NCBI GenBank assembly: GCA_031414335.1
Contig: JANNVI010000044.1
Location: 1,218 to 65,217 of the forward strand
Reading direction: 5' to 3'
DNA: 64,000 bases
Source of the DNA: Gammaproteobacteria bacterium
GTDB taxonomy: Bacteria; Pseudomonadota; Gammaproteobacteria; Steroidobacterales; Steroidobacteraceae
Positions 16,255-60,440 of the stretch are shown in pieces. Each line of letters opens with the position of its first letter. Position 1 is the first letter of the stretch. Both the position numbers and the translations under genes were made by a program. The notes beneath the pieces are model-generated. The model made no database searches. It was not told where the DNA came from and saw only the letters and a program-made list of their open reading frames with translations.

Positions 16255-18817
16255 TCAGGGTGCGCGCAACCTCGACGCGGGAAAAACACTCGATCTGGTC
16301 GCCAACACGCACATCCTGGTAGTTTTTCACGCCAATGCCACACTCGGTGCCGGCCCGGACTTCGTTAGCTTCGTCCTTGAAGCGGCGCAGCGATTCCAGC
16401 TGGCCTTCGAAAATCACTACGTTGTCGCGCAGCACGCGGATCGGGTTATTGCGCTTGACGAAGCCCTCGCTGACCAGGCAGCCGGCGATCAGGCCGATCT
16501 TGCTGGAACGGAACACTTCGCGCACCAGTGCCGTGCCGACGATGGACTCGCGCACTTCCGGCGCCAGCATGCCCGTCATGCGTTGCTTCACGTCATCGAT
16601 GGCTTCATAAATGATGCTGAAGTAGCGGATCTCGACGCCGGTCTCCTTGACAGCATCGCGGGCCGCGGCATCCGCGCGCGTGTTGAAACCGATGACCAGG
16701 GCGCGCGATGCCGCAGCAAGCTGCACGTCCGAGGCCGTGATACCGCCAACACCGCTCGCGATCACCTTGACCTGGACTTCATCGGTCGACAGCTTGTTGA
16801 GCGCCTCGCGCAGTGCCTCGGCGCTGCCCTGCACATCGGTCTTGAGCAGCACATTGACCATGCCCGCCTTGGCCTCGCCCATTTGCGAGAACACGTCCTG
16901 GGCGCTGGTGGTCGCTTTCGCCAGTTTGACGTCGCGGAACTTGCCCTGCCGGTAGAGCGCGACTTCACGCGCCTTGCGGTCGCTTTCGACCGCCAGCAAT
17001 TCATCACCCGCGTTAGGCGAGGCCTGCAGACCCAGCATCACGACCGGCATGGATGGCGCCGCTTCCTGAACCGCCTTGCCGTGCTCATCGAACAGCGCGC
17101 GCACGCGACCGTACTCGTGGCCGACGATGATCGGGTCGCCTACCTTCAGCGTGCCTTTCTTGATCAGCAACGTGGCAACCGGGCCGCGCCCTTTTTCGAT
17201 GCTCGACTCGACCACGATACCGGATGCGAGACCGCCCTTGGGCGCCCTCAGCTCCATCACCTCGGCCTGCAGCAACAGCGAATCCAGCAGCTGCTCGACG
17301 CCCTGGCCGGTGCGCGCCGAGACATTTACAAAAATGCTCTGACCGCCCCATTCTTCCGGGATAACTTCATATTTCGCCAATTCCTGCCGCACGCGATCCG
17401 GGTCCGCATCGCCCTTGTCGATCTTGTTGACCGCAACGACTATGGGAACGCCCGCTGCCTTGGCATGCTGAATGGCCTCGATGGTCTGTGGCATGACGCC
17501 ATCGTCCGCCGCCACGACCAGCACCACGATGTCGGTGGCCTTGGCGCCGCGGGCGCGCATGGCCGTGAACGCTTCGTGGCCCGGCGTATCGAGGAAAGTC
17601 ACTTTGCCCTTCGGGGTAACCACGTGATAGGCGCCGATGTGCTGGGTGATGCCGCCGGCTTCGCCTGACGCGACCTTGGTGCTGCGGATGTAATCTAACA
17701 ATGATGTCTTGCCATGATCGACGTGGCCCATGACGGTCACGACCGGCGGACGCGCTTCGTATTCCGCCTCCGGAATCGACATGCCCTGCAGATCGGCGTC
17801 GAGCTGGTCTTCCTTCAGCGCAATTGCCGCATGACCCATCTCCTCGGCCACCAGCATCGCGGTGTCCTGGTCAATAGGCTGGTTGATGGTCGCCATCACG
17901 CCCATCTTCATCATGGCCTTGATGACTTCGGTCGCCTTGACCGCCATCTTCTGCGCCAGTTCCTGCGGCGTGATGGTTTCGCCTATGGTTACTTCGCGCA
18001 AAACCGGGGCGGTGGGCATTTCGAACGCGTGCTTGCTGTCCACGCCGACGGGAACCTTGCGATCGCGAACCTTCTTCTTCTTCTTGAAGCGCGAGCTGAC
18101 ATCGCCCTGCACATGCAGTTCGGCGCGGCCGTAACGCGTGCCGTCTTTCTTGTTGCGGTCGGCATCCGCCTCGTCCTTGCGAGCCGGCGCCTTGGCGGCC
18201 GGAGCGTCGGTGGCCTTTCTCGGTTTCGAATCGCGCTCGGACAGTTCGCGTTGTACCTGGACCTCGGCGGCTCGACGCGCCTCTTCAGCGGCCTTGCGAG
18301 AATTCGCCTCTTCTTCAATACGCCTGCGGTTCTCCTGATCGATGCGTTCCGCCTCGCGACGTTCATGCTCCTGGCGTTCGCGGTCGGCGCGTGCCGACTC
18401 CTCGAGTTCCTTCAAACGCTGATCCGAGGCTCCCTGCTGTACCTGCGCCTGCTGCTGCAGCACATCGCGCTTGACATAGGTTTTCTTGGAGCGAACTTCG
18501 ATGTTGACCGTGCGCTGGCGGCCGGCGGCGCCGGCGACCCGCACTTCGGATTGCTGCTTGCGCTGCAAGGTAATCTTCGGCGGCGCAGCGGCACCACCCA
18601 TGACCGGCTTACTACCGGCAGGCGCGGGCGGCGCCGCAGTTGCGCCGCCTGGACTATGGCTGCGACGCAAGTGCGTCAGCAATTCCATCTTGGCTTCGTC
18701 GCTGATGCGGTCGTCCGGCCCCAGTACCGTGATGCCGGCCTGCGCCAGCTGCGCGATCAAACGGTCGACCGGCACTTTCAGCACGTCGGCAAATTGGGCA
18801 ATCGTTACTTCGCTCAT
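16247..18817 (-). CDS. infB: translation initiation factor IF-2
   Basis: 856 aa. G-domain [51 protein letters not shown]. Confidence 0.97.
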
Positions 18818-18846
18818 CAGTTAAACCTCTGCACGGTACCGCAGCT

Positions 18847-20355
18847 TCAAGCCTTGGCTTCAGTGAACCAATGCTCGCGCGCCTTCATGATCAGCTTGCC
18901 GGCTTCTTCCGCCGTCAGACCCTGGATATCTAACAAATCGTCGACCGCCTGCTCCGCCAGGTCCTCGCGCGTGCGCACACCACGCCGCGCCAGCGCCAGC
19001 GCGAGGTCCGGCTGCATGCCTTCGAGCAGCAGCAGGTCGTCGGCCGGCAGCTGGTTATCAAGCGTTTCCTCGCTCGCGATCGCCTGCGTCAACAGCACGT
19101 CGCGGGCGCGATTGCGAAGTTCGCCGACCATGGTCTCGTCAAACTCTTCGATCGCATTCAGCTCAGCCTGCGGCACGTAGGCAATTTCCTCGATCGAAGA
19201 AAAGCCTTCCTGCACCAGGATCGCCGCGACGTCCTGGTCGACATCGAGCTGCTTCATGAAATTCTCGATCAGCGAACGGGACTCGGTTTCGCTCTTGGCT
19301 TCGGCGTCCGTTTCCGTCATGACGTTCAGATCCCAGCCTGTAAGCTGGCTGGCGAGCCGGATATTCTGACCGCCGCGGCCGATGGCCTGGGACAGTTTGT
19401 CTTCGGCAACAGCGATATCCATGCTGTGCGATTCTTCATCGACGACGATGGAGATAACTTCCGCGGGCGACATCGCATTGATGACAAACTGCGCTGGATT
19501 GTCGTCATGCGGGATGATGTCGACGCGCTCACCGGCAATTTCGTTAGAGACCGCCTGCACGCGCGAGCCACGCATGCCGACACAAGCGCCCACCGGATCG
19601 ATGCGGTTGTCGGAGCTGCGCACCGCGATCTTGGCGCGCACGCCCGGATCGCGCGCCGCACCCAGGATCTGGATGGTGCCCGCACCGACTTCCGGCACTT
19701 CGAGTTTGAAAAGCTCGACCAGGAACTCGGGCGCCGAACGCGTCAGAAATAACTGTGGGCCGCGCGGCTCGGGGCGTACCTCTTTGAGATAGGCCTTGAT
19801 GCGATCCTGCGGCTTGACCATTTCGCGCGCGATCATGTCGGTGCGCGACACAAAGCCTTCGGCATTGCTGCCGAGATCGACATAGATGCCGTTGCGATCG
19901 ATGCGCTTGACGATGCCGCTGACCAGCTGACCGACGCGATCCTTGTACGCATCGATTACCTGGGTCCGCTCGGCCTCGCGCACTTTCTGCACGATGACCT
20001 GCTTGGCCTGCTGCGCTGCGATGCGGCCGAACAGGATCGAATCCATCGGCTCCTCGACAAAGCCGCCGATTTCCGCCTTCGGATCAACATCGAGCCCGTC
20101 TTCGAGACGCAATTCGCGGGCCGGCGTTTCCATTTCGCGGGAATCGTCGGCGAAGACTTTCCAGCGGCGGAAGGTACTGTAGTCGCCGGTCTTGCGGTTG
20201 ATTGAAACCCTGACATCCCATTCTTCGGCGGCGTCACCCTGTTTCTTGCGGGTAGCCGAAGCCAGCGCCGCCTCCAGGGCTTCGAAAATAATTTCCTTGT
20301 CGACGCCCTTCTCGTTAGAGACCGCGTCCACCACCATCAGGATTTCCTTGTTCAT
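18847..20355 (-). CDS. nusA: transcription termination/antitermination factor NusA
   Basis: 502 aa with S1 and KH domains (GACVGMRGSRVQAVSNEIAGERVDI; QAIGRGGQNIRLASQLTGW) and C-terminal acidic repeats. Confidence 0.96.
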   Translation of the reverse strand: MNKEILMVVDAVSNEKGVDKEIIFEALEAALASATRKKQGDAAEEWDVRVSINRKTGDYSTFRRWKVFADDSREMETPARELRLEDGLDVDPKAEIGGFVEEPMDSILFGRIAAQQAKQVIVQKVREAERTQVIDAYKDRVGQLVSGIVKRIDRNGIYVDLGSNAEGFVSRTDMIAREMVKPQDRIKAYLKEVRPEPRGPQLFLTRSAPEFLVELFKLEVPEVGAGTIQILGAARDPGVRAKIAVRSSDNRIDPVGACVGMRGSRVQAVSNEIAGERVDIIPHDDNPAQFVINAMSPAEVISIVVDEESHSMDIAVAEDKLSQAIGRGGQNIRLASQLTGWDLNVMTETDAEAKSETESRSLIENFMKQLDVDQDVAAILVQEGFSSIEEIAYVPQAELNAIEEFDETMVGELRNRARDVLLTQAIASEETLDNQLPADDLLLLEGMQPDLALALARRGVRTREDLAEQAVDDLLDIQGLTAEEAGKLIMKAREHWFTEAKA

Positions 20356-20378: not shown

Positions 20379-20852
20379 TTACATTGCAAGCCGCGATTTA
20401 CTTATCTCGGCAAAAGGCAGCGACACCTTCTGACCGTCCACTTCAATTTCAATGCCCGACTCGCTCACTGTCTGCAGCGTGCCCGTATACCGGCGGCGCC
20501 CATCGCGCGCACCTGCCAGCTCAACCTTGATCCGCGAACCCGCGAACCGTTCGTAATGCGCGTGCGTGCGCAGCAATCGATCAAACCCTGGCGAGGACAC
20601 CTCGAGCGAATACGCGCCCGGTATGGGGTCCTCGACATCTAACAAAGCCGACACCTCGCGGCTCACTTTCTCGCAATCGTCCACACTCACATGGCGGCCG
20701 GCATCGGCCAGCGTGTCGACAAAGATCCGCAGCACGCCCTCGCGCCGGCCCGGAACCCACTCGATTTCAACCAGCTCCAGGCCCAGCGACACGACCAGCG
20801 GCTCGATCAAAGCCGTCAGGCGGGCGCGCTGCGTGGTCAGCTGATCCGTCAC
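20379..20852 (-). CDS. rimP: ribosome maturation factor RimP
   Basis: 157 aa with a GTG start. LELVEIEW...LRIFVD...VSVDDCEKVSREVSALLDVEDPIPGAYSLEVSSPG. Confidence 0.92.
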   Translation of the reverse strand: MTDQLTTQRARLTALIEPLVVSLGLELVEIEWVPGRREGVLRIFVDTLADAGRHVSVDDCEKVSREVSALLDVEDPIPGAYSLEVSSPGFDRLLRTHAHYERFAGSRIKVELAGARDGRRRYTGTLQTVSESGIEIEVDGQKVSLPFAEISKSRLAM

Positions 20853-21177: not shown

Positions 21178-22146
21178 ATGGAACGTCGCGATTTTCTGAT
21201 GACCGGAACCTTGGCCCTGGGCCTGAGCCCCGCGGTTGGCAGCTTGGCGTCAGCCAAGGCGACCAAGGCAATGCCACCGAGCCTCAAGGGCCCGTACCTC
21301 GATCTAACAACCGGCAAGGGCAACATGCTGGCGATGGCGCGTATCGACGCCAACCTCGATGAAACCAAGGTCAAGTACGGCAGCGCAACCGGCATGGTTG
21401 CCGGCGTACGTGATGGCGAACCGCTGCGTGATCTGTTTGGTTTTGAAGTGGTGTCTGCGGGCCGGGCCTGGAAACAGCCGGACGGCAGCTTCCGAATCCT
21501 GCACCGCGAGACGGTGCTGTATACCGACCCGCGCAGCGGCGAAGTGCTAACAGAATACCAGAACCCCTACAACAACGAAAAAGTGCGGGTGGTCGATGTC
21601 GTCAATGACCCGTGGAATGAATACATCGAGGAATTCAAGCCCCGCCCGCCGTCGTACGGCGGAATGAACAAGAACACCGACGTGCCGCGTGAACCGCTGA
21701 TCCTGCCGTGGCGCGAAGTGGCCGGTGGCATGGCGTCGATGGAGCGGCATATACACCTGTACTACCCCGCGGCCCTGACACCTGAGAAGTGGCCGCGCGA
21801 AAGTGCCGGCCGGATGAATCGGGTCAGCGAGTTGTTCACCTACAATGTGTCGATCGCCGACCTGCAGAACCCGAAGAAGACCACGATCGAACACAGCGGC
21901 ACATGGGTACGCGTGACGCCCTGGCTGCCGTGGATGCTGATGGGCCAGGCGCCGGGGCATTGCCTGTACCATTCGACCGTCAATTCCTTCAATGAAATCG
22001 ACGGCTTCAAACCTAACATCCTGAGCTACATGCAGAAGGCGCACCCGGAGATGCTGGAGCCGCCGCCGGAAGAATCCTGGTCGAAGCCGAACCTGTCGAG
22101 CCTCGAGGTCTACGCGCGCGATCAGAACCCGGCGCCGATCAAGTAA
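21178..22146 (+). CDS. hypothetical exported protein with a twin-arginine (Tat) signal
   Basis: 322 aa. The N-terminus MERRDFLMTGTLALGLSPAVGSLASA fits an S/T-RRxFL Tat signal. I do not securely recognise a family (possibly DUF1838-like). Confidence 0.6.
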   Translation: MERRDFLMTGTLALGLSPAVGSLASAKATKAMPPSLKGPYLDLTTGKGNMLAMARIDANLDETKVKYGSATGMVAGVRDGEPLRDLFGFEVVSAGRAWKQPDGSFRILHRETVLYTDPRSGEVLTEYQNPYNNEKVRVVDVVNDPWNEYIEEFKPRPPSYGGMNKNTDVPREPLILPWREVAGGMASMERHIHLYYPAALTPEKWPRESAGRMNRVSELFTYNVSIADLQNPKKTTIEHSGTWVRVTPWLPWMLMGQAPGHCLYHSTVNSFNEIDGFKPNILSYMQKAHPEMLEPPPEESWSKPNLSSLEVYARDQNPAPIK

Positions 22147-22168: not shown

Positions 22169-24268
22169 CTACTTGAGCCAGCGCGCCAGCCAGGCGTGAA
22201 CTTCCTGGAAGAAGAACCGGCTGTCCTCGCCCTTCAGCACCCAGTGGTTTTCCTCCGGAAAAACCACCAGCCGGCTTTCGATCCGGCGCCGTTGCAGGAT
22301 GGTCCAGTACTCGAGCGAATTGTTGAGCGGCACGCGGAAGTCCTGCTCGCCCACCGTGACTAACACCGGGGTCGCGAACTTGCCCGCATAGCGGATCGGA
22401 TTCTGCGTGCGCCACACTGGCCCCTGCTCCCAGACCGGTCCGCCGTTGTTGATTTCACGCGGATAAGTGCTGTCCGAGGTTCCGAACTGCGATTCGAGAT
22501 TGATCAGGCCCGCATGGCTGATCAGGCAACGGTAACGTGTCGTGGTCGCCTGCAGCCAGTTCGACAAATGCCCGCCATAGCTTGCGCCGCCCGCGCATTG
22601 CCGGCTGCTGTCGATGAACGCATAGCGCTTGATCGCCTCATCGGCCGCTTCGTTGATTTCCTCGCCCGCGGTGCGCAACGGATCGCCCTGGATATGGCGC
22701 GCAAATTCCTCGCCGAATCCGGTCGAGCCGGAATAGTTGGTCAGCAGCACGACATAGCCGGGCGCGGCCAGCATGTGGTAATTCCAGCGCAACACCCACT
22801 CGTCGCGCCACATGGTGTGCGGCCCGCCATGGATCACGACGAACAGCGGATATTTCTTGTTAGCGTCGAAACCCGGTGGCTTGATGAGGTAGCTGTGGAC
22901 CATCCGCCCCCTGGAGCTGCGGGTCCAGAAGGCCTCCGCCGGCGCGAGGTCGAGCTGCTGCGCGCGGGCGCCGGCAAAATTTGTCAGCGTCTGATGCTGG
23001 CCACCCGCGGCATCAAGGCGCACGAGTTCCCTGGGCGCAGCCACACTGTCGTAGTTGGCGATGAGCACCGGCATTTTGGCGCGATCAGCGACGACCAGAT
23101 TGCTGTAGGCGCCCTTCTTGAGGTCGATCGCAACCCGCACCGCGCCGCCCGCCACCGGCACCGAGTACAACTTCTCGTTGCCCGAGTCCTCGGCGGTCAG
23201 CCACACGATCCTGCTATCGGCGCTGACCGCAAACGAGCTCACCGAGCGGTCGAAGCCGGTTGTCAGTTCACGTAGCTGGCCCTGCTGCGGCCAGGTCATC
23301 GCGACCACCCGCGTCAGGTCGTAGACAAATCCAGTCACACGATCGCAGCTGGCTAACAGACGCGAGCCATCGGGCGCAAAGACCGGATGACCACAGCTGT
23401 AGTCCTTGCCGGTCAGCGCGCGCGGTTCACCGCCGGCCGCGGGGACGGAAAACAATGTCGTCGAAGCAAAGGCATAGGCCGCGGTATCGGCGTTGGTCGA
23501 CGCGGCAAACACCAGCGACTGGCTATCCGGCGCCCAGGCCGCATCCAGCGCTTCACCGCTGTCGCTGCGCCGGCCCGCAAAGCCCGGGAGCCTGGCCGGC
23601 GCGCTGTTGGCTAACAGATCGCGCGGCGCAGCGGCAGCGTTGCCGGCGGCGTCGAGCGCCAGCACCAGCAGCCGCGGTTGCCGGCCGTCGATCCAGTGAT
23701 CCCAGTTGCGGATCGGAAAGCTGGTGTAGACGCGGGCGTTGTATTTGCGCGCCTTGCGTTCTTCGTGGGCCTTGCGGTTGTCGTCCTCGGAGACCGTGCC
23801 CGGCCAGGCCATAGTTTCCAAGGCGAGCGCACGGCCATCGGGCGAGAATTGCGCATTGCGCGCACCGCCGACCAGGGTTGTCAGCCGGCGCGCCTCGCCA
23901 CCCGCGAGATCGAGCAGATAGAGCTGCTCGACTTCGTCATCGCCGCGCTTGGCCGAGAAGACGATGCGCTGGCTGTCGCGCGACCAGCTAACGCCGGACT
24001 CGCCGCCCAGCGTCTGCGTCAGCGGTTTGGGCGGGCTTTTGCCGTCGACGGCCACCAGCCACAGGTCCGAAGATTTCAGTTTCTCGTCGTAGGACGGCTG
24101 GTTGACGGACACGACGACCCAGCGGCCGTCGGGGCTAACAACCGGCGCGCCGACCCGGGGCATGAGCCAGAGACCTTCGTGAGTAATCGCCCGGGGTGCA
24201 GCCCATGCTGTCGCTGCACATGCGAGCAACGCCAAGGCCAGAATCGAGGTCGAATAACGAATGGTCAT
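22169..24268 (-). CDS. S9 family serine peptidase (prolyl oligopeptidase/dipeptidyl aminopeptidase-like), exported
   Basis: 699 aa with a signal peptide, a beta-propeller-like N-terminal half, and a C-terminal alpha/beta hydrolase domain carrying the nucleophile elbow GGASYGGH. Confidence 0.85.
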   Translation of the reverse strand: MTIRYSTSILALALLACAATAWAAPRAITHEGLWLMPRVGAPVVSPDGRWVVVSVNQPSYDEKLKSSDLWLVAVDGKSPPKPLTQTLGGESGVSWSRDSQRIVFSAKRGDDEVEQLYLLDLAGGEARRLTTLVGGARNAQFSPDGRALALETMAWPGTVSEDDNRKAHEERKARKYNARVYTSFPIRNWDHWIDGRQPRLLVLALDAAGNAAAAPRDLLANSAPARLPGFAGRRSDSGEALDAAWAPDSQSLVFAASTNADTAAYAFASTTLFSVPAAGGEPRALTGKDYSCGHPVFAPDGSRLLASCDRVTGFVYDLTRVVAMTWPQQGQLRELTTGFDRSVSSFAVSADSRIVWLTAEDSGNEKLYSVPVAGGAVRVAIDLKKGAYSNLVVADRAKMPVLIANYDSVAAPRELVRLDAAGGQHQTLTNFAGARAQQLDLAPAEAFWTRSSRGRMVHSYLIKPPGFDANKKYPLFVVIHGGPHTMWRDEWVLRWNYHMLAAPGYVVLLTNYSGSTGFGEEFARHIQGDPLRTAGEEINEAADEAIKRYAFIDSSRQCAGGASYGGHLSNWLQATTTRYRCLISHAGLINLESQFGTSDSTYPREINNGGPVWEQGPVWRTQNPIRYAGKFATPVLVTVGEQDFRVPLNNSLEYWTILQRRRIESRLVVFPEENHWVLKGEDSRFFFQEVHAWLARWLK

Positions 24269-24308: not shown

Positions 24309-25211
24309 TCAGGCATTGGTAGCCATACCGCGCCAGGCTGCGCGAATATTGGCCGCAGTTGCCCCGCTGCCATCCGGCCGCCATCCGGGCGGTCCAAAAA
24401 CATACCTTACAACTTCGCGCGCGCTGCGCGCGTGCCAGACGTCGCGGAACATCGCCGCCCATTCGTGGAACGCGATACGAATCGGGTTGTAGGTCTCGAT
24501 GTTGCGGATCAGGCCGTACTTCGGCGGATCCTTGTCGGTCTCCGCGGCGAAGGTTCCGAACATGCGGTCCCAGACCATGAACATGCCGGCGTAGTTGCGG
24601 TCCACGTAGCGCGGATTGGAAGCGTGGTGCACGCGGTGATTGGAAGGCGTGTTGAACAGGTATTCATACCAGGCCGGCATCCGCTGGATGGCCTCGGTGT
24701 GGATCCAGAACTGGTACAGCAGGTTGATGCCACTCTGCAGCAAGACCATCTCGGGCGGAAACCCGATCAGCAACAACGGGAACCAGGGTATCCAGGTGCC
24801 GGCGGGCACACCGGTCCAAGGCTGCCGGATCGCCGTCGAGAGGTTGTACTCCTGCGACGAGTGATGGTTGACATGCGCTGCCCACCAGAAACGGCACTCG
24901 TGGCTGGCGCGGTGGAACCAGTAATACGCGAAGTCATCGAGCACCACGATCGCTGCCCACGCGTATACCGAGTTCATCGGAATGTCGAACAGCCGGAACT
25001 GGTAGATGAAGGCGAACACCACGGCAGTGGCACCCGCTAACATCACGTTGGTCGCATAGTTGCCGGCGCGCATGCCGATCGACGCGAGCGTGTCCTTCCA
25101 GGTGTAGTGGCCACTCACCAGCTGCGTCCGGATCAGCACCATCTCGACGGCCATCACCACGAAGCGCGTCAGCACCAGTATTTGTGCAACCGTGAGGGCT
25201 TTGATCCACAT
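24309..25211 (-). CDS. sterol desaturase / fatty-acid hydroxylase superfamily membrane protein
   Basis: 300 aa, multi-TM, with histidine boxes HRASHE, HVNHH and HRVHH. Confidence 0.8.
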   Translation of the reverse strand: MWIKALTVAQILVLTRFVVMAVEMVLIRTQLVSGHYTWKDTLASIGMRAGNYATNVMLAGATAVVFAFIYQFRLFDIPMNSVYAWAAIVVLDDFAYYWFHRASHECRFWWAAHVNHHSSQEYNLSTAIRQPWTGVPAGTWIPWFPLLLIGFPPEMVLLQSGINLLYQFWIHTEAIQRMPAWYEYLFNTPSNHRVHHASNPRYVDRNYAGMFMVWDRMFGTFAAETDKDPPKYGLIRNIETYNPIRIAFHEWAAMFRDVWHARSAREVVRYVFGPPGWRPDGSGATAANIRAAWRGMATNA

Positions 25212-25702: not shown

Positions 25703-25894
25703 GGGTTTCTCCTTGTGCGGGATTCGCACTAACAAACTACCGGTCGCCAAATTAGGCTGGGTTCAGTCCTTTTACTATTCGGAGTTATGCGTTCCGGGCG
25801 GCGAAGTCTACGTATGCGCTGCGCTCGAATTTACAGAGCAATCAGGCTACGCTGCCTGCCTGGCCGCATGGCCACCTAGCGGAGGGTTTGCGCC

Positions 25895-26947
25895 ATGGAT
25901 CGAGGTATCAGAACACGTACTGCAATTGCGGTCGCGCTTGCGCTGTGCGCCGTGGGGCTCATGCCGGGCTCGGTCGCCTGCGCCGCCGAACATACGTTGT
26001 TAGCCAGTCCGCAGACGATCCAGTTCGGTCATTTCGATGCCTCGGTCAAGCCGGTGCTGACAATTGAGTCCGGCGACATCGTGACCATCGAAACCGCGAC
26101 GCAGATCGACCCGGTCGAGGTCGACGCGTCCGGTGCGGTGCCGCCGGCCGCCGTGCCGCAGTACGTGCGCGACATTTTCAATCAGGTGAAGGATCGCGGA
26201 CCAGGTCCGCATGTGCTCACCGGGCCGATCTATGTGAACGGCGCCGAGCCCGGCGATGTGCTCGAAGTTCGTATTCTGCAGATCGATCTCGCGACCGACT
26301 ACGGGTACAACACCCAGCGGCCGTATGCCGGCCTGCTGCCCGAAGATTTCCCGGCCGTGTGGCAGCGTGTGATCCCGATCAACCGGCGCACCAAGACCGC
26401 CGACGTGGCGCCCGGAGTCGTGGTGCCCGTTGATCACCCGTTCTTTGGCACCATCGGTGTGGCGCCGCCCGCCAAGCTCGGGCGCATCTCGAGCGGCCCG
26501 CCGGGGATTCATGCCGGCAACCTGGATAACAAGGACATCGGCGCCGGCGCCACTCTATATATCCCGATCCACGCACCGGGCGCGTTGTTCTCCGCTGGCG
26601 ATGGCCACGGCTCACAGGGCGATGGCGAGATCGACGTCAGCGCGATAGAAACCGGCTTGCGCGCCAGACTGCAGTTCTTCGTGCGCAAGGACATGAAGCT
26701 CGCCTGGCCGCGCGCCGAGACACCAACTCACTGGATCGTCATGGGACTGGCCCCGAGCCTCGATGAGGCAATGAAACTCGCGGCGCGCGAGACCATCGCG
26801 TTCATCACCCAGCACTACCCGAAGCTAACGCGCGAAGAGGCCTACATGATCGCGAGCACTGCGGTTGACTACCACGTGACTCAGGTGGTCGATCGCACGG
26901 TGGGCATTCACGGGATGATTCCGAAGGCGATATTCACCGGACGCTGA
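25895..26947 (+). CDS. acetamidase/formamidase family protein, exported
   Basis: 350 aa. FmdA/AmdA-type core HAGNLDNKDIGAGATLYIPIHAPGALFSAGDGHGSQGDGEI, with an N-terminal signal. Confidence 0.8.
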   Translation: MDRGIRTRTAIAVALALCAVGLMPGSVACAAEHTLLASPQTIQFGHFDASVKPVLTIESGDIVTIETATQIDPVEVDASGAVPPAAVPQYVRDIFNQVKDRGPGPHVLTGPIYVNGAEPGDVLEVRILQIDLATDYGYNTQRPYAGLLPEDFPAVWQRVIPINRRTKTADVAPGVVVPVDHPFFGTIGVAPPAKLGRISSGPPGIHAGNLDNKDIGAGATLYIPIHAPGALFSAGDGHGSQGDGEIDVSAIETGLRARLQFFVRKDMKLAWPRAETPTHWIVMGLAPSLDEAMKLAARETIAFITQHYPKLTREEAYMIASTAVDYHVTQVVDRTVGIHGMIPKAIFTGR

Positions 26948-28226: not shown

Positions 28227-28236
28227 TGTTTCTTCT

Positions 28237-28890
28237 CTACTTGATTGCAACCAGGACGTCAGTGACCACCGCACGCGGCAGCCTGCCGATGTGCTTCACC
28301 ACGACACCGTGCTCGATGGACTTCCAGTACTCATCGACCGACTGTGACGTCCGGATGTAATGCACCGTGGAAAATGTCCCGGCGGGGACGGTTATCGTCT
28401 CGCGAATTGCGACGATCTTGAGGGTTCCGGCCGGCGACGCCGCCGAAGCTGTGGTCTGCTGCGATCGATAGCTCGCCGTCACCGACGGGATCCGCCACGA
28501 CCGCCCGGCGCAGGCGCGAAACGCCGGATCGCTGACGATGCCGGGGCGAAACAGCGTCGATTCAAGCGCGCCGCCCTGGGCATTCATCCGCCGGGTCTCA
28601 TCGAGCACCGCGACATCGTCGGCAATGTGGTGTCGATTGACCTGTACCGACACCGCGCCGCCCCGCGTCGTGCGCACCCGGCTGCCGGTTGCCGTCACCG
28701 ACTCCCAGTGATCAGTGTAGTGCGATTTCCCGCCCGTCGATTCAACGTGCTGATAGTTGTAGCCAAGCGCGGGCTTTGGCGTCGCGATGGTCACGCAGTC
28801 CTGCGCGGTGTTAGCCGACTGCAATCCCGTGCTGAACGTCAGCAGCAATCCGGTGACAACTAGAATCCGCATCGCTCGTAGCATACACAC
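28237..28890 (-). CDS. hypothetical secreted protein
   Basis: 217-aa ORF with a signal-like N-terminus (MRILVVTGLLLTFSTGLQSA; the real start may be ATG 28872). No family recognised. Tightly packed between the aminotransferase and PhyH genes. Confidence 0.5.
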   Translation of the reverse strand: MCMLRAMRILVVTGLLLTFSTGLQSANTAQDCVTIATPKPALGYNYQHVESTGGKSHYTDHWESVTATGSRVRTTRGGAVSVQVNRHHIADDVAVLDETRRMNAQGGALESTLFRPGIVSDPAFRACAGRSWRIPSVTASYRSQQTTASAASPAGTLKIVAIRETITVPAGTFSTVHYIRTSQSVDEYWKSIEHGVVVKHIGRLPRAVVTDVLVAIK

Positions 28891-48825: not shown

Positions 48826-50748
48826 TCAGCTGGCGCTGCCCGGCGCCGGTGTACCGACACCGCCCGGCCCCGCCTCGGGGGGCGGCGGCCTGAACCCGCC
48901 CTTGGTGCCGATGCTGTCGTCCCAGTCTGCGGGCGGGCTCGGCGGGCGGCCCTCCATGATTTCCTTAATCTGGCCATCGTCGATGGTTTCGTACTTGATC
49001 AGGGCCTGCGCCATCGCGTCGAGTTTGTCGCGATGCTCAGTCAGGATAGTCTTGGCGCGCTGATAGGCCGAATCGATCACCCGGCGCACCTCGATGTCGA
49101 TGACATGGGCTGTCTCATCCGAGACCTGCTTGTTCTGCGTCACCGAACGTCCCAGGAATACCTCGCCGCTTTCCTCGAGATAGGTCAGCGGGCCCAGGCG
49201 GTCTGACAGGCCCCACTTGGTCACCATGTTGCGGGCCAGGGTGGTGGCGCGCTCGATGTCGTTGGACGCGCCGGTGGTGACCGCGTCCTTGCCAAAGGCC
49301 AGTTCCTCGGCGATGCGGCCGCCGAACAAGCTCGAAATCTGCGACTCGAGCCGCTGACGGCTGTAGCTGTAGCGATCTTCTTCCGGCAGGAAGAACGTCA
49401 CGCCTAACGCACGGCCGCGCGGGATGATCGTGACCTTGTACACCGGATCATGCTCCGGCAGGTTGACGCCGACGATCGCATGCCCGGCCTCGTGATAGGC
49501 GGTATTGAGCTTTTCCTTTTCGCTCATCACCATGGAGCGGCGCTCCGTGCCCATCATGATCTTGTCCTTGGCTTTCTCCAGCTCTTCCATGTTGACGGTG
49601 CGCTTGTTAGCACGCGCGGCAAACAGCGCCGCCTCGTTGACCAGATTGGCAAGATCGGCGCCCGAGAACCCGGGCGTGCCGCGCGCGATCAGCGCCGGCT
49701 TGACGTCATCGCCCAGCGGCACCTTGCGCATATGCACGCGCAGGATCTGCTCGCGGCCACGGACATCGGGCAGCGGCACCACGACCTGGCGGTCGAAGCG
49801 GCCCGGGCGCAGCAGCGCCGGGTCGAGGACATCCGGGCGGTTGGTCGCGGCGATGACGATGATGCCTTCATTGCCTTCGAAGCCGTCCATCTCCACCAGC
49901 AGCTGGTTGAGGGTCTGTTCGCGCTCGTCGTGGCCACCGCCAAGTCCAGCGCCGCGATGGCGCCCGACCGCGTCGATTTCGTCGATGAAGATGATGCACG
50001 GCGCGGTCTTCTTGGCCTGCTCGAACATGTCGCGCACGCGCGAGGCGCCCACACCGACAAACATTTCGACGAAATCGGAACCGGAAATCGTGAAGAACGG
50101 CACCTTGGCCTCGCCGGCAATCGCGCGCGCCAGCAGAGTCTTGCCGGTGCCGGGCGAGCCGACCATCAGCACGCCCTTGGGGATCTTGCCGCCCAGCTTC
50201 TGGAACTTGCCCGGGTCCTTGAGGAAGTCGACGATTTCGCCCACTTCCTGCTTGGCTTCATCGACGCCCGCGACATCCGCAAACGTGACATTGACCTGGT
50301 CCTCACCTAACAACCGCGCGCGGCTCTTGCCGAACGACATGGCGCCACGGCCATTGCCGCCACCCTGCATCTGCCGCAGCATGTAGAAAAACAGGAACAG
50401 CACCAGCGCTACCGGCGCGAGTTGCAGCAGGATCTGGTAGATCAACGGCGTTTCCGGCGGCGGCTCGGACTTGATGCGCACGCGGGACTTGTCGAGCATG
50501 CCGATCAGGGCCGTGTAATCGGTTTCCGGGTTGTGGACTTTGAGCTTGCTCTGGTTCTTGTCGAGCGCGTAGATCATCCCGCCCTGCAGGGTCACCTCGC
50601 TGACATCGCCACTGCGGACCTTGGCGAGAAAATCGGAATACGCAAGTTCGGCAGGTTGCGCCCCACGCGGCATGAATTCACTGAAAACCAGCAACAGGGC
50701 CACCAAGACTACGGCCCAGATGGCGAAATTCTTGAATGAATCGTTCAT
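48826..50748 (-). CDS. ftsH: ATP-dependent zinc metalloprotease FtsH
   Basis: 640 aa with Walker [32 protein letters not shown] and the Zn site HEAGHA. Confidence 0.97.
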
Positions 50749-51321: not shown

Positions 51322-51794
51322 CTATTCGTAGCGGACTTTGACGACTTCAAAGCTGCGCACGCCACCAGGCGCGGTTACGGCCACTTCATCGCCAACGCTC
51401 TTGCCGATCAGTGCGCGGGCGATCGGCGAGGTGATCGCGATGCGGCCGGCCTTGATATCCGCCTCGTCCTCGCCAACCAGCCGGTAAACGACCTTGGTCC
51501 CGTCGTCGAGATTCTCGATCTCGACCGTGGCGCCGAAAATCACCTTGCCGGTGTTAGGTATCGCGGTGACGTCAATGATCTCGCAATTGCCGAGCTTGGA
51601 TTCGATGTCGCCGATGCGGCCTTCGATGAACCCCTGCTGCTCGCGCGCGGCATGGTATTCGGCATTTTCAGACAGATCGCCATGGCTGCGCGCCTCGGCA
51701 ATCGCCTTGATGACCGCCGGCCGTGACTCGCTCTTGAGCTTCTTCAGCTCGGCGCGCAATTGCTCGGCGCCGCGCAGGGTCATTGGACTTCGCT

Positions 51795-51798: not shown

Positions 51799-55031
<3,233 letters not shown>

Positions 55032-55032: not shown

Positions 55033-56211
55033 CTAACGCCCAGCGCCCGTGTTGAGCTTCTTCAACTGGTTCGCAAGACGGCGCACCATCAGCTGGGTAA
55101 AGCTCTCAAACAACGCCTTGAGATCATGGGGCCCGGGGCTGGCCTCGGGATGCCCCTGGAAACTGAAGGCCGGCTTGTCGGTGCGCCGAATGCCCTGCAG
55201 CGTGCCGTCGAACAGCGAACGGTGCGTCGGCTTCAGGTTGGCTGGCAGGCTGCTTTCATCGACTGCGAAACCGTGATTCTGCGAGGTAATCAGCACCCGC
55301 CCGGTTTCCAGGTCCTGCACCGGGTGATTGGCGCCATGATGACCGAACTTCATCTTGACGGTCTTTGCACCGCTCGCCAGAGCTAACAATTGGTGGCCGA
55401 GGCAGATGCCGAACATTGGCAGATTGGTCGCAACAAGATCGCGAATTGCATTGATCGCGTAGTCGCAGGGCTCCGGGTCGCCCGGACCGTTGCTGAGAAA
55501 TATGCCATCGGGCTGCAGCGCAATCACCTCGGCGGCCGTGGTCTTGGCAGGCACAACCGTCATTCGCCCGCCCTGGTCAGCTAACAGGCGCAGGATGTTG
55601 CGCTTGATGCCAAAATCGTAGGCCACGACGTGCATGCGCTGATGCGCCCGGATCGGCGGACGCGATGGGGCATCGAAAGTGGAGCCGTCGTTCCACTGGT
55701 AGCTGCGCGGTGTGGTGACAATCTGCGCGAGGTCCATGCCCTTGAGGCCCGCAAAGGCGCGCGCCGCCCGTACCGCCGCATCGATATCGATGCTGGCGCC
55801 GGCCGCGATGCAGCCCGCCTGCGCGCCCTGTTCCCGCAACATGCGGGTCAGCTTGCGCGTGTCGATGCCAGCAATCGCGACCGTGCGGCAACGCTGCAGA
55901 AAACCCGGCAGCGTTTCCGACATGCGCCAGTTGCTGGCCTGCAACGGCAGGTCGCGAATGATCAAGCCCGCGGCAAAGATTTCCGACGCCTCCATGTCCT
56001 CGGCGTTAGCACCGGTGTTGCCGATGTGCGGGTAGGTCAGCGTGACCAACTGTCTTGAGTAGGAGGGGTCGGTGAGAATTTCCTGGTAGCCGGTCATCGC
56101 GGTGTTGAATACCACTTCGCCGACGCTTTGCCCGATGGCGCCAATTGATTGGCCGCGAAAAACCGTGCCGTCAGCTAACGCCAGCACCGCAGGTACACTC
56201 ACGCGCTTCAT
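55033..56211 (-). CDS. carA: carbamoyl-phosphate synthase small subunit
   Basis: Start moved to ATG 56211 ([20 protein letters not shown]). Glutaminase triad region [31 protein letters not shown]. Confidence 0.96.
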
Positions 56212-56479: not shown

Positions 56480-57277
56480 TTATAAACCAAGTACTTCGCG
56501 CATGGTGTAACGGCCCGCAGGCCGTCCAGCCAGCCAGGCAGCCGCCCGGAGTGCCCCGCGGGCGAATATGGCCCGGTCGGTCGCCTGGTGGCGCAGCACC
56601 ACCCGCTCACCCGCGCCGGCAAATATGACGTCGTGATCGCCGACGATGTCGCCGCCGCGGACCACGGAAAATCCGATTTCATCATCCTTGCGCAGCGCAA
56701 TCCCCTCGCGGGAACGTCCGCGTACGGTCTCGAAATCCTGCTCGCGGCCGCGTGCCGCCGCACGGCCGAGCGCCAGCGCCGTGCCCGAAGGCGCGTCCTG
56801 CTTGTGGCGGTGGTGCGCTTCGATGATCTCGATATCGTATCCGGGCAGACTCCGTGCGGCCTGCTGCACCAGTTCCACCAGCAAACTGACACCGACCGAG
56901 GTGTTCGCGGTCTGCAGCACTGCGATCGAGCGCGCCGCCCTGGCAAGCTCGGCCTCGAAACCGGCGGGCTGGCCGGTCGTGCCGATGACACAGGCGACGC
57001 CGGCTGCAACACAATCGGCCAGCAGTTCGCTGCTGGCGTGCGCCGCAGAAAAGTCGACGGCGATGTCGGCCTCGCGCAGTGCCGCCGCGCGATCAGCCCG
57101 GACCATAATCTTGTTAGGCGCAAGGCCGGCCAGCTGGCCGGAATCGGCGCCGATGACCTCGCTGCCAGCCTGATCGATGGCGACCGCAAGAGTCAGCGCA
57201 GGAAACCCGGCAAGACTGGCCACCAGCGACCGGCCCATGCGCCCTCCGGCGCCCATGATTGCGAGGCGATGTCCCAT
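56480..57277 (-). CDS. dapB: 4-hydroxy-tetrahydrodipicolinate reductase
   Basis: 265 aa (AIMGAGGRMG, IEIIEAHHRHKQDAPSGTA). Confidence 0.95.
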   Translation of the reverse strand: MGHRLAIMGAGGRMGRSLVASLAGFPALTLAVAIDQAGSEVIGADSGQLAGLAPNKIMVRADRAAALREADIAVDFSAAHASSELLADCVAAGVACVIGTTGQPAGFEAELARAARSIAVLQTANTSVGVSLLVELVQQAARSLPGYDIEIIEAHHRHKQDAPSGTALALGRAAARGREQDFETVRGRSREGIALRKDDEIGFSVVRGGDIVGDHDVIFAGAGERVVLRHQATDRAIFARGALRAAAWLAGRPAGRYTMREVLGL

Positions 57278-57309
57278 GCGGCCCTGCTCCGGAGCGAATG
57301 TTAGGTCAG

Positions 57310-58461: not shown

Positions 58462-58475
58462 TCAAGGCGCGGTCG

Positions 58476-60440
58476 CTATGAAGCGCGCTGGTCCTTATCC
58501 TTGTCTTTCACTTCCTCGAACTCGGCGTCGACGACATTGTCGTCGCGCTTCTTGCCACTGCCCGAGTCGCCGCCGTCGCTGCCCTGACCGCCACCCGCGC
58601 CGTCGGCGCCAGCCGCGCCCGCGCTTGCCTGGTAGGCCTGCTGCACAATCGCGGCCGAGGCCTGCATCAGCGCTTCGAGCTTCTTCTGGATCTTGTCCTT
58701 GTCGTCATCTTTCGCGACCGACTTCAATTCGCCTAACGCGGACTCGACCTTGGCGCGATCTTCACCGGAAACTTTTTCGCCAAGATCGGCCAGTGATTTC
58801 CCAACCTGATGGATGGCGGCATCGGCCTGGTTGCGCGTCTCAGTCAGCTCACGGAATTGGCGGTCTTCCTCGGCATGCGCCTCGGCATCACGCACCATGC
58901 GCTTGATCTCTTCCTCATTGAGGCCGGAGTTCGCCTTGATGATGATTTTCTGTTCCTTGCCCGTCGCCTTGTCCTTGGCGGACACATTCAGGATGCCGTT
59001 CGCGTCGATATCGAAGGTGACTTCGATCTGCGGCGCGCCGCGCGGCGCCGGCGGAATGTCCGTCAGATCGAACTTGCCGAGCGACTTGTTGTCCTGCGCG
59101 CGCTGGCGCTCGCCCTGCAGCACGTGCACGGTGACCGCGGTCTGGCTGTCGGCCGCGGTGGAGTAGGTCTTGGTCGCCTTGGTCGGGATCGTGGTGTTCT
59201 TCTCGATCACCTTGTCAACGATGCTGCCGAGCGTCTCGATTCCCAGCGACAGCGGCGTGACATCTAACAACAGCACGTCCTTGACGTCGCCCGCGAGCAC
59301 GCCACCCTGGATCGCGGCGCCCACGGCTACCGCCTCATCCGGATTGACGTCCTTGCGCGGCTCCTTGCCGAAGAAGTCCTTGACGTATTTCTGCACCAGC
59401 GGCATGCGCGTCTGGCCGCCGACCAGGATCACTTCCGAGATGTCGTTGTTAGTGACGCCCGCATCCTTGAGCGCGACGCGGCAGGGTTCGATGGTCCGGC
59501 GCACCAGGTCATCGACCAGCGATTCGAGCTTGGCGCGCGTCAGCTTGAGCGCGAGATGCTTCGGTCCGGACGCGTCCATGGTGACGTACGGCAGGTTGAT
59601 ATCGGTCTGCTGCGACGAAGACAGCTCGACCTTCGCTTTCTCGGCAGCTTCCTTCAGGCGTTGCATCGCGAGCGGATCCTTGCGCACATCGACGCCGGAC
59701 TCCTTGAGGAATTCTTCCGCGATGAAATGGATGATCTTGAGGTCGAAGTCCTCGCCGCCGAGGAAAGTGTCGCCGTTGGTCGAGAGCACCTCGAACTGGC
59801 GCTCGCCATCAACGTTGGCAATCTCGATGACCGACACGTCAAAGGTACCGCCACCCAGGTCGTAGACCGCAATCTTGCGATCGCCGCCGGCCTTGTCCAG
59901 GCCGTAAGCTAACGCGGCCGCCGTGGGCTCATTGATGATGCGGCGCACGTTGAGGCCCGCGATGCGTCCGGCGTCCTTGGTCGCCTGGCGCTGCGAGTCG
60001 TTGAAATACGCAGGCACAGTGATGACGGCCTCGGTGACCGGTTCGCCGAGAAAATCCTCGGCGGTCTTTTTCATCTTCATCAGCACGCGCGCGGAAATTT
60101 CTGGCGGCGCCATTTTCTTGCCGGAGACGTCGACCCAGGCATCGCCATTGTCGGCCTTGACGATCTTGTAAGGCACCATGTCGATGTCTTTCTGCACGAT
60201 CTGCTCTTCGAAGCGGCGACCGATCAGGCGCTTGACCGCGTACAGCGTGTTATGCGGATTGGTGACCGCCTGGCGCTTGGCAGACTGGCCGACGATGACT
60301 TCGTCGTCCTTGGTAAAGGCGACGATCGAGGGCGTGGTGCGATCACCTTCGCTGTTTTCGATGACGCGCGGCTTCCCGCCCTCCATGATGGCGACGCAGG
60401 AATTGGTCGTGCCGAGGTCAATACCGATAATTTTTGCCAT
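58476..60440 (-). CDS. dnaK: molecular chaperone DnaK (Hsp70)
   Basis: 654 aa ([38 protein letters not shown]). Confidence 0.98.

Follow-up and report, generated by a model that had tools for sequence, protein, structure and literature searches.

A 64 kb stretch of DNA from an uncultured Steroidobacterales-related gammaproteobacterium (contig JANNVI010000044.1; 63.2% G+C; hereafter the window, meaning the whole stretch that was analysed) is pervaded by a short DNA word, CTAACR (R, purine), which occurs on both strands, in all usable reading frames and in coding as well as non-coding DNA. In its commonest form the word exceeds expectation more than 100-fold, and inside genes it is spelled with rare codons, also within invariant protein segments. 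The pressure behind it acts at the level of DNA, and the anomalous codon usage is a by-product. By analogy with known signature words, CTAACR may be a tag of self DNA for uptake or recombination, a reading to which we assign a probability of roughly 0.45.

Genes in the window were called from the G+C content by codon position and then hand-corrected, whereby one false antisense open reading frame (ORF) was dropped and queF, dksA, rpsO, nuoE, secG and folP were added. This resulted in 58 genes covering 95.6% of the window. On the + strand there are 73 CTAAC and 45 GTTAG, giving 118 sites from position 56 to position 63903, a density of 1.84 per kb and a mean spacing of 546 bp. An earlier look at the letters and reading frames of the same DNA (hereafter the sequence-only reading) had outlined a field at 17695-59914; the word is present there, but this range covers only part of its extent. 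After CTAAC, 81 of the 118 sites continue with A and 36 with G, which makes 117 with a purine. With regard to frame, 64 sites are G-TTA-G, 28 NCT-AAC, 10 CTA-ACR and 3 GTT-AGC, while 4 are CGT-TAG with TAG as the gene's stop and 9 are intergenic or stop-overlapping, the latter within 2.8 kb of non-coding DNA. The counts of 64 G-TTA-G and 10 CTA-ACR sites given in the sequence-only reading returned unchanged on the corrected annotation, and its 29 NCT-AAC sites became a near-identical 28. The word supplies the stop triplet of 7 genes (CGT-TAG four times, C-TAA-C three times); stop usage in the window (16 TAG, 15 TAA, 25 TGA) is unusual at 63% G+C. No inverted pairs of the word were seen in the window and terminators are not a hotspot, 9 of the 118 sites being non-coding or stop-overlapping.

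The enrichment was assessed against G+C-matched relatives; the loci compared, most of them the carB neighbourhoods of other bacteria, carry CTAAC at about 0.10 per kb (sets of 420 kb and 773 kb). Compared to these, CTAAC is ~17-fold over-represented (118 observed vs 6.5 expected) and CTAACA >100-fold (81 vs 0.7), the most deviant 6-mer in any of the 47 G+C-matched loci screened. When synonymous codons were shuffled at the window's own, already inflated codon usage, 24.3 +/- 4.6 coding sites resulted, compared with 109 observed. Among the other TAA- or TTA-containing 5-mers tabulated there was no comparable enrichment. The one-mismatch neighbours of CTAAC have ratios of 0.7-1.2, with the exception of CTAAG (2 vs ~9 expected); depletion of near-matches as a signature of biased repair was uninformative, being low for CTAAG alone and not general.

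The full word reads R-S-C-T-A-A-C-R-a, is ~9 bp long and asymmetric, and has CTAACR as its core. The enrichment of A downstream fades over ~4 positions and sequence information is gone beyond -2 to +9; the word is therefore not a repeat element. The invariant core comprises 6 bp and the whole word roughly 13 bits. Its flanks can be read from the codons around TTA, where TTG precedes 25 times and CTG 11 times (background 211 TTG : 1231 CTG), and where GGT, GCT or GAT follow 33 times compared with 7.9 expected, GCG being avoided and Glu absent. Occupancy of G-TTA-G runs by next residue from 31% for Gly through 16% for Ala, 8% for Asp and 4% for Val to 0% for Glu. In the GTT-AGC (Val-Ser) frame the word is found in 3/18 cases if the next codon starts with Y and in 0/20 cases otherwise, and an apparent non-enrichment of the GTT-AGN frame was gone once the S-Y flank was demanded. 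The closest relative, an independent genome described below (L001), gives the same sequence logo. Since this 9-bp preference depends neither on the frame nor on the transcript strand and extends to non-coding DNA, the pressure is on DNA and not on translation or RNA. As the word is rich in A+T and contains a stop triplet on either strand (TAA, TAG), the genes of a 63% G+C genome can accommodate it in few frames and with rare codons only, namely Leu TTA, CTA and TTG, the NCT codons, GGT, GCT and GAT, and AGA.

The clearest expression of this is Leu TTA. Where the neighbours permit the word, with [LVMAPST] before Leu and a codon with initial G after it, TTA accounts for 64 of 452 Leu codons, compared with 10 of 1649 elsewhere (odds ratio 27, Fisher p = 4e-34), which corresponds to 14% and 0.6%, respectively, or a ~23-fold difference. 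The core claim of the sequence-only reading, that rare codons are forced into genes, their invariant segments included, by a word at the level of DNA, is borne out by this difference. The sites that it had quoted (17695, 36974, 40568, 49404, 51552, 52859, 53309, 53714, 55383, 59264 and 59909) were likewise all correctly placed. Its impression of only two TTA codons outside the context was too low, as the tabulation gives 10 of 74, some of which may fall in over-extended gene starts. Of the other rare codons that it had singled out, CTA overlaps the word in 10 of 24 cases and lies elsewhere in the remaining 14. The three AGA codons that it had named, in nuoF and twice in carB, do follow CTAAC, but only 3 of 15 AGA codons do so and AGA is not specific to the word; these three arise because a purine is required at position 6, so that an Arg codon after CCT-AAC or GCT-AAC must be AGR. 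Genes for tRNAs reading TTA, CTA or AGA (tRNA-Leu(UAA), tRNA-Leu(UAG), tRNA-Arg(UCU)) were found neither in the window nor in the fetched related loci. An Rfam scan of the window returned two tRNAs and nothing else, tRNA-Met(CAT) at 30576-30652, adjacent to the final nuo gene, and tRNA-Leu(GAG) at 45267-45351 (-) between nuoA and secG; a transfer-messenger RNA (tmRNA) gene was additionally found among the fetched loci.

The word is imposed on invariant residues and also lies at many variable ones. Here and below, the strand of a copy is the one reading CTAACR 5'->3', and a copy reads CTAACA and lies in the frame G-TTA-G (Leu TTA) unless otherwise stated. In carB (51795-55031(-)), the segments YVLG (TAT GTG TTA GGC; 52859..52864, +) and GPNR (GGG CCT AAC AGA; 53309..53314, -) hold residues, VLG and PN, that are invariant in 37/37 outgroups, where they are written with CTC/CTG and CCG/CCC. 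The same applies to RALG of ftsH (48826-50748(-); CGT GCG TTA GGC; 49404..49409, +, CTAACG), in which ALG is invariant in 21/21 outgroups with CTG/CTC, and to LLLD and AALA of dnaK (58476-60440(-)), invariant for LLD and ALA in 8/8 outgroups; the former (CTG TTG TTA GAT; 59264..59269, +) is written there with CTC/CTG, and the latter is GCC GCG TTA GCT in the window (59909..59914, +, CTAACG). Orthologues in G+C-rich genomes thus use the preferred CTG/CTC and CCG/CCC at invariant positions and not TTA or CCT. Sister lineages that were assembled independently also carry the word, and just as densely; both findings agree with the argument of the sequence-only reading against sequencing error. Its statement that the changes are synonymous is right for these invariant segments but does not hold throughout, since about half of the evaluable sites carry residues that outgroups lack. 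Examples of such sites are PN in carB (CCT AAC AGA; 53714..53719, -), where outgroups have PE, PD or AE, ALG in carB (GCG TTA GGG; 52565..52570, +, CTAACG), where they have AKA or ARA, and PN in greA (51322-51798(-); ATA CCT AAC ACC; 51552..51557, -), where they have DA or NA. The other copies in carB are at 51830..51835 (-, CCT-AAC), with VN, VY or VR in outgroups, at 52124..52129 (+), a variable position, and at 54707..54712 (+); ftsH has two more at 49605..49610 (-, GCT-AAC) and 50307..50312 (+), and dnaK two more at 58733..58738 (+, CTAACG) and, at a variable position, 59447..59452 (-, ACT-AAC). Residue conservation was scored by comparison with the ten closest relatives that are free of the word, and it was lower where the word lies than for the same residue elsewhere (Asn 0.50 vs 0.70, Thr in CTA-ACR 0.21 vs 0.69, Leu 0.71 vs 0.79), and the residue after TTA reached 0.55 compared with a general background of 0.73. 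The word therefore either prefers variable positions or drives replacements.

The copies are also spaced more evenly than chance would allow. The coefficient of variation (CV) of spacing is 0.68 for all sites, compared with 0.99 for random placement, and 0.69 for coding sites, compared with 1.0 +/- 0.096 for draws from the 840 synonymously possible positions; in both cases 0/5000 simulations were as low, and the CV in L001 is 0.65. Gaps shorter than 200 bp number 19, where 36 are expected. As the spacing is even and only 105 of the 840 synonymously possible sites (12.5%, ~1 in 8) are occupied, the pressure acts per stretch of DNA and not per potential site. The raw strand skew of 73:45 results from coding opportunities and from the location of 46 of the 58 genes on the - strand; between the two replication-strand orientations, occupancy is 17.3% and 15.4% (p = 0.58; 64 kb, one replichore).

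The distribution of the word among relatives is clade-specific and graded. By carB, the window falls among Steroidobacterales-like Gammaproteobacteria. The nearest genome by this gene is represented by contig JANMYM010000030.1 of a metagenome-assembled genome (MAG; L001), with 97% amino-acid and 90.7% nucleotide identity and 1.76 sites per kb, while the next relatives, at 79-81%, carry ~0.1 per kb. Scans of metagenomes and genomes with carB revealed no relative between 81% and 97% identity and a look-up based on rpsO gave short contigs only; intermediate lineages were obtained by an HrcA protein search followed by contig retrieval. Ordered by HrcA identity to the window, the densities are 1.95 sites per kb in L177 (99%), 2.1-2.4 in L164-L166 (90%), 2.6 in L168 (84%) and 2.2 in L169 (77%), followed by weak enrichment in L171/L172 (73%; 0.8 per kb) and L174/L175 (70%; 0.6 per kb). 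Assemblies rich in the word include GCA_965190265.1, ERZ25039524 and ERZ28573525. One lineage, L167 (87%; JGI 3300038379, contig Ga0394873_0088937), has 0.43 sites per kb and no CTAACR in 4.6 kb, and it nests within the word-rich set according to an HrcA neighbour-joining tree as well as NadK and GrpE identities. Since orthologous sites such as 61764..61769 (+, GTG TTA GGC) in hrcA are common to the window, L001, L164 and L168 while L167 differs there, the simplest history would be a single gain followed by loss in the L167 lineage.

Sites are conserved and at the same time turned over. In the region aligned between the window and L001, 31 of 41 window sites are shared; of 28 motif 5-mers that are in frame, L001 retains 22, compared with a fraction of 0.59 for control 5-mers in the same frame. 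L164, which is 78% identical in nucleotides, retains 13 of 24 sites, where 6.4 are expected (p = 0.004). Each lineage has many private sites, with independent gains in sister lineages, and acquisition is therefore ongoing. The private sites of the window and of L001 lie near each other (mean 473 bp vs 1075 bp by chance, p = 0.045), which hints at compensatory turnover. At the grpE site 60737..60742 (-, CTA-ACA; grpE 60524-61099(-)), the window, L001 and L164 read TTG/CTG-CTA-ACA, and L168 reads TTG-TTA-GCC, with the word on the opposite strand and shifted by 1 bp.

Some further features of the related loci were recorded. The weak CTAAC enrichment in L171/L172 and L174/L175 could be an incipient or a decaying form of the word; in L174, CTAACGC occurs 4 times compared with 0.1 expected. 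An alternative word ("dialect") was sought in the CTAACR-less relatives L002-L006, L081-L093, L167, L171 and L174, and nothing comparable was found. The words AATTG and AAATT are ~2-fold over G+C-matched controls, a CTAACR-independent quirk common to the clade, and AATTG is in excess also in the word-less L167 (13 vs 2.9 expected). After the window and L001, the sole other large-fold (~10-fold) single-word excess among the 47 loci is AGAGGG in L115, an unrelated metagenome contig of G+C 0.615 (24 vs 2.2 expected). A mobile island encoding three integrases and a relaxase occupies positions 1-4072 of L177, next to the tmRNA gene; its word density (4 sites in 3.7 kb) did not differ significantly from that in the rest of the locus (2.1 per kb). 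Many genes of L177 are split, as would be expected of a long-read assembly prone to errors.

Along the window, the first copy lies in the trpS ORF 3-770(-), at 56..61 (+), followed by 1319..1324 (+, CTAACG) in ORF 816-1370(-), 1663..1668 (-) and 1747..1752 (-, CTAACG) in ORF 1443-2057(+), and 2969..2974 (-) in a peptidyl-prolyl isomerase (PPIase) ORF 2356-3174(+). Beyond it, there are copies in ligA (3178-5226(-)) at 3591..3596 (+), 4725..4730 (+) and 4761..4766 (-, CTAACG, CCT-AAC, Pro-Asn), in zipA (5238-6038(-)) at 5381..5386 (+) and 5819..5824 (+), and in smc (6058-9666(-)) at 6723..6728 (-, GCT-AAC, Ala-Asn), 6978..6983 (+), 7749..7754 (+), 8169..8174 (+, CTAACG), 8244..8249 (+), 8445..8450 (+) and 8859..8864 (+). 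The largest word-free gap of the window, 8864-11103, then holds queF and a dksA-type gene, neither with the word; the latter, at 10046-10906 (+), encodes a DksA-type C4 zinc-finger protein with an N-terminal extension of ~150 amino acids that is rich in Lys, Ala and Pro and histone H1-like. The word resumes in a gluQ-like ORF 11067-11810(+), both within the gene (11103..11108, +, CTAACG, CTA-ACG, Leu-Thr) and at its end, where the TAA of 11807..11812 (+) is the stop, and continues in phaR (11855-12328(+)) at 12291..12296 (-) and in pnp (12378-14465(-)) at 13862..13867 (+) and 14072..14077 (+), with a further copy at 14465..14470 (-, CTAACG) where the pnp start meets intergenic DNA. The stop of rpsO (14559-14828(-)) is the TAA of 14557..14562 (-), which occupies the loop of a hairpin, GCGTCG-CTAACA-CGACGC (14551-14568 (-)), whose fold was not significant compared with shuffles; a second copy in this gene is at 14768..14773 (-, CTAACG, NCT-AAC). 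Next are truB (14927-15823(-)) with 15333..15338 (+, GTT-AGC, Val-Ser), the rbfA ORF 15853-16254(-) with 16170..16175 (+), infB (16247-18817(-)) with 16363..16368 (-, CTAACG, GCT-AAC), 17011..17016 (-, CTAACG, CCT-AAC) and 17695..17700 (+, TCA TTG TTA GAT, SLLD), the nusA ORF 18847-20355(-) with 18930..18935 (+), 19542..19547 (-, CTAACG, TCT-AAC) and 20313..20318 (-, CTAACG, TCT-AAC), and rimP (20379-20852(-)) with 20639..20644 (+).

Between rimP and the nuo genes, a DUF1838 ORF (21178-22146(+)) has copies at 21304..21309 (+, CTA-ACA), 21547..21552 (+, CTA-ACA) and 22013..22018 (+, CCT-AAC), and a peptidase S9 ORF (22169-24268(-)) at 22360..22365 (+), 22858..22863 (-, GCT-AAC), 23353..23358 (+), 23611..23616 (+), 23988..23993 (+, CTAACG, GTT-AGC) and 24135..24140 (+, GTT-AGC). 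ORF 24309-25211(-) contains 25037..25042 (+); 25729..25734 (+) is intergenic and touches the start of ORF 25313-25729(-); and ORF 25895-26947(+) contains 25998..26003 (-) and 26825..26830 (+, CTAACG, CTA-ACG). In ORF 26934-28274(-) the word is at 27572..27577 (+), 27747..27752 (-, CTAACG, CTA-ACG), 28070..28075 (-, GCT-AAC) and 28220..28225 (+), in ORF 28237-28890(-) at 28809..28814 (-, GCT-AAC), and in intergenic DNA at 29742..29747 (-, CTAACG). The sole copy without R at position 6, CTAACT at 30726..30731 (-), provides the TAA stop of the nuo ORF 30728-32263(-), within which lie 31123..31128 (+), 31540..31545 (+) and 31807..31812 (+).

The remaining nuo ORFs carry the word throughout: 32179-33696(-) at 32349..32354 (-, GCT-AAC), 32751..32756 (+, CTAACG) and 33624..33629 (+, CTAACG); 33702-35717(-) at 33890..33895 (+) and 35162..35167 (+); 35729-36034(-) at 36004..36009 (+); and 36031-36648(-) at 36642..36647 (+). 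The stop of the nuoI ORF (36660-37139(-)) is the TAG of a CGT-TAG copy at 36660..36665 (+, CTAACG), and its YPNG segment (TAT CCT AAC GGC) holds 36974..36979 (-, CTAACG). ORF 37141-38223(-) has 37752..37757 (+) and 37947..37952 (-, GCT-AAC), and ORF 38232-40415(-) has 38657..38662 (+), 38858..38863 (+, CTAACG), 38933..38938 (+, CTAACG), 39362..39367 (-, TCT-AAC) and 40127..40132 (-, CTAACG, CCT-AAC). In the nuoF ORF (40419-41744(-)), the copy at 40568..40573 (-) reads GCT AAC AGA (Ala-Asn-Arg), AGA giving the R at position 6, and is accompanied by 40937..40942 (+, CTAACG) and 41267..41272 (+). Copies are further located in the nuoE ORF 41747-42229(-) at 41968..41973 (-, NCT-AAC), between the nuoD and nuoE ORFs at 42283..42288 (-, CTAACG), in the nuoD ORF 42289-43542(-) at 42429..42434 (-, GCT-AAC) and 43284..43289 (+), in the nuo ORF 43535-44293(-) at 44155..44160 (+), and in the nuoA ORF 44802-45185(-) at 45162..45167 (-, CTA-ACA).

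Downstream of nuoA, the word occurs in the secG ORF 45377-45754(-) at 45734..45739 (-, CTA-ACA), in glmM (46634-47968(-)) at 47008..47013 (+) and 47347..47352 (-, CTAACG, CCT-AAC), and in the folP ORF 47973-48824(-) at 48077..48082 (+, CTAACG), 48120..48125 (-, CTA-ACA), 48686..48691 (+) and 48791..48796 (+). After ftsH, greA and carB, whose copies are given above, the stop of carA (55033-56244(-)) is the TAG of a CGT-TAG copy at 55033..55038 (+, CTAACG), and the gene itself contains 55383..55388 (+, CAA TTG TTA GCT, QLLA), 55581..55586 (+), 56004..56009 (-, CTAACG, GCT-AAC) and 56175..56180 (+, CTAACG). One copy is in dapB (56480-57277(-)) at 57112..57117 (-, CCT-AAC), one is intergenic between dnaJ and dapB (57299..57304, -), and, beyond dnaK and grpE, another is intergenic between hrcA and grpE (61139..61144, +, CTAACG). 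CGT-TAG copies provide the TAG stops of hrcA (61189..61194, +, CTAACG) and nadK (62378-63280(+); 63275..63280, -, CTAACG), the latter gene also containing 62754..62759 (-), and the last copy is in the recN ORF 63292-63999(+), at 63898..63903 (+, CTA-ACA). A CIRCE/HrcA operator behind the TTAGC-containing sites was ruled out, no CIRCE being found in the window.

As an explanation, we suggest that a lineage-specific, dispensable sequence-reading factor would bind R-S-CTAAC-R-a, and that the word would mark self DNA for uptake and/or recombination in natural transformation. Sites might accumulate by biased uptake or recombination plus selection, as in the uptake signal sequences (USS) of Pasteurellaceae and the DNA uptake sequences (DUS) of Neisseriaceae and as recently suggested for the highly iterated palindrome HIP1 of cyanobacteria, and writing the word in genes would sometimes demand an amino-acid change. 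We favour such a self-DNA tag because uptake-sequence drive and whatever maintains HIP1 are the sole known makers of patterns of this kind. Several observations weigh against it. Neither the window, with its 64 kb, nor any of the fetched loci contains a competence gene, a methyltransferase gene or a candidate reader gene. Between the window and L001, third-position divergence is flat with distance from sites (0.20-0.24, no gradient), and there are no recent recombination blocks, the maximum identity in 300-bp windows being 0.97. The core has only 6 bp, and the whole word ~13 bits, compared with cores of 9-12 bp in known uptake sequences, and loci of 36-47% G+C carry CTAACR by chance at ~0.5-1.1 per kb, so that the tag would discriminate only against G+C-rich DNA. 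The word is, unlike DUS, not concentrated in terminators or inverted pairs. Finally, its even spacing and conservation would fit any intracellular function at the level of DNA segments equally well.

Such an intracellular function, in which the word would be a binding site every few hundred bp for a nucleoid-associated, condensin-loading, replication- or repair-linked protein (for example in strand discrimination or loop anchoring), is conceivable, if unlikely. It would account for the even spacing, for site conservation above background and for coding and non-coding DNA being equally served, and like arguments have been made for HIP1 (PMC5861425) and earlier for the spacing of USS (Karlin et al., as cited in PMC1939737). 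However, L167 and all other Steroidobacterales relatives are without the word, so that a function of this kind would need to be both dispensable and of recent origin; for a generic architectural role, it is also hard to explain why every housekeeping gene should bear the cost of rare codons. We know of no candidate protein for this function. Asymmetric motifs of 5-6 bp are typical of Type III, Type IIG and bacteriophage exclusion (BREX) methyltransferases, which leads to methylation-linked biased repair following the model of Elhai for HIP words, where a CTAACR methyltransferase plus mismatch or nicking repair would convert near-matches and guard existing copies, so that the word would spread as a molecular drive with no need for a function at the level of the organism. 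The co-occurrence of HIP words with cognate methyltransferases (PMC4390886), the loss of the word in the nested L167, as expected from loss of a dispensable enzyme, and the predominance of single transitions among window-L001 differences at private sites are all consistent with this model. We nevertheless regard it as rather unlikely, since a site-autonomous process should ignore its neighbours, while only 12.5% of possible sites are converted and the spacing is under-dispersed; one-mismatch neighbours other than CTAAG are not generally depleted, and the graded flank preferences resemble binding affinity more than strict methyltransferase specificity. From the conservation of HIP1, Xu et al. 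moreover infer selection over biased repair (PMC5861425). A variant that we consider doubtful would have the word actively written by a sequence-directed conversion system, dispensable enzymes such as a reader or methyltransferase with nicking or patch repair turning near-matches into R-S-CTAAC-R-a and mending mutated copies. In this case the word would amount to a selfish molecular drive, stronger in essential genes than codon bias and even than the amino-acid sequence, and it would vanish with its system, as in L167.

Chi sequences are short, lineage-specific and over-represented, that of Bacillus subtilis being the 5-mer AGCGG, and CTAACR might analogously be a recombination hotspot read by the RecBCD or AddAB of the lineage that shields self DNA from degradation. 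A Chi-like contribution has been suggested for HIP1 (bioRxiv 10.1101/2024.09.10.611283) and the raw strand skew of 73:45 points in this direction, but the skew vanishes after normalisation, in contrast to the strong co-orientation of known Chi sites with replication, and an excess of >100-fold at ~2 per kb is far beyond them, making this explanation decidedly improbable. Explanations at the level of translation (a bldA-type regulatory TTA, ribosome pausing or selection for out-of-frame, "hidden" stops) have in their favour that an off-frame stop is always created on both strands, a direct result of the word's sequence, and that off-frame stops have been reported as selected (PMC2996987). As one and the same 9-bp context is found in four coding frames, whichever transcript strand is read, and also outside coding DNA, they are already contradicted, and we give them very little credence: TGA-containing words would provide hidden stops far more cheaply, other TAA- or TTA-containing 5-mers tabulated are not comparably enriched, and the TTA codons lie in housekeeping genes (dnaK, ftsH, carB, infB) and not in conditional ones. 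TTA is nonetheless a regulatory rare codon in Streptomyces. An artefact, either base-calling or assembly error at a modified motif or a dispersed repeat or mobile element, has next to no probability. The error-prone assembly of the relative L177, with its split genes, would be in line with it, but the same density is found in independent assemblies, including the k141-named MAG contig L001 and Logan, JGI and ENA contigs, the sites keep reading frame and conserved residues, and the end of sequence information beyond -2 to +9 already contradicts a repeat element.

Signature words that extend over a whole genome are a rarity, known from Pasteurellaceae, Neisseriaceae and cyanobacteria, and their origin and function are debated. 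CTAACR belongs to the class of hyper-abundant, selectively maintained genomic words, within which it stands out by its asymmetry, by being rich in A+T while its genome is G+C-rich, and by its conflict with codon bias. The uncultured, Steroidobacterales-related clade seems to have acquired such a word independently of the other groups; a literature search for CTAAC and GTTAG words returned nothing relevant. Due to the direct clash with codon bias, the pressure on DNA can be read from codon usage and from amino-acid replacements in essential genes. The graded series of word-rich lineages, with a word-less one nested among them, should allow phylogenetic profiling to pinpoint the responsible gene or genes. 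Further, the word can be used as a clade marker in metagenome binning, and predictors of genes or horizontal transfer based on codon usage are distorted in this clade. Should CTAACR prove to be a signal for uptake, soil Gammaproteobacteria would join the groups with sequence-specific transformation.

Among known systems, bldA-type TTA codons mark conditional genes and have no fixed context, whereas 64 of the 74 TTA codons here stand in Y-G-TTA-G-S, in genes that include infB, dnaK, ftsH, carAB and nuo genes. Chi sites are, like CTAACR, short, lineage-specific and over-represented words, and they mark self DNA, as CTAACR may do, but their enrichment is modest and their co-orientation with replication strong, features that CTAACR does not share. 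The RAATTY motif of Campylobacter jejuni also has 6 bp and shows that such a motif can be a self-signal for DNA uptake (PMC8468864 and papers cited therein). In that case, however, the signal is a methyl mark on a compositionally common motif, and genome-wide enrichment against codon bias is not described for it.

HIP1 (GCGATCGC) and the alternative HIP words of cyanobacteria come closer. HIP1 is 15-300-fold over-represented, occurs at up to >1 copy per gene in coding and non-coding DNA and is, like CTAACR, conserved beyond codon-level expectation (PMC5861425), and HIP words are patchily lost in some lineages (PMC4390886). Its function, long obscure, has now been tied to transformation, as methylated HIP1 raises transformation (bioRxiv 10.1101/2024.09.10.611283) and HIP1 abundance correlates with DNA-uptake genes (bioRxiv 10.64898/2026.06.24.733823). 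The differences are that HIP words belong to another phylum, that HIP1 has a periodicity of 10-90 kb compared with a regularity of ~0.5 kb for CTAACR, and that HIP words are G+C-rich palindromes, HIP1 being an octamer, with known methyltransferases, while CTAACR is asymmetric and A+T-rich. We know of no methyltransferase for CTAACR.

The USS and DUS provide the broadest parallel, uptake sequences being known, as of a survey from October 2025, in their two families only (bioRxiv 10.1101/2025.10.24.684340). They differ from CTAACR in their cores of 9-12 bp, in the preference of DUS for terminators and inverted pairs, and in codon usage, since USS frames correlate with preferred codons whereas CTAACR requires the rarest ones; the host of CTAACR is an uncultured soil or sediment-type gammaproteobacterial lineage, and the likeness is one of sequence pattern. 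In that pattern, USS and DUS are likewise short, asymmetric, clade-specific and vastly over-represented at ~1-2 per kb, have graded flanks, A-rich on one side, around a strong core, and lie on both strands without orientation bias or replication polarity (PMC1939737) and with significantly even spacing (Karlin et al., as cited in PMC1939737). Sister species share sites, with turnover. They are mostly genic, use any tolerable frame, favour poorly conserved residues and alter peptide frequencies in the proteome (PMC2817400). CTAACR, although some of its copies lie within invariant protein segments, shows the same restriction of its copy excess to one clade, the same absence of polarity and the same use of tolerable frames and poorly conserved residues.

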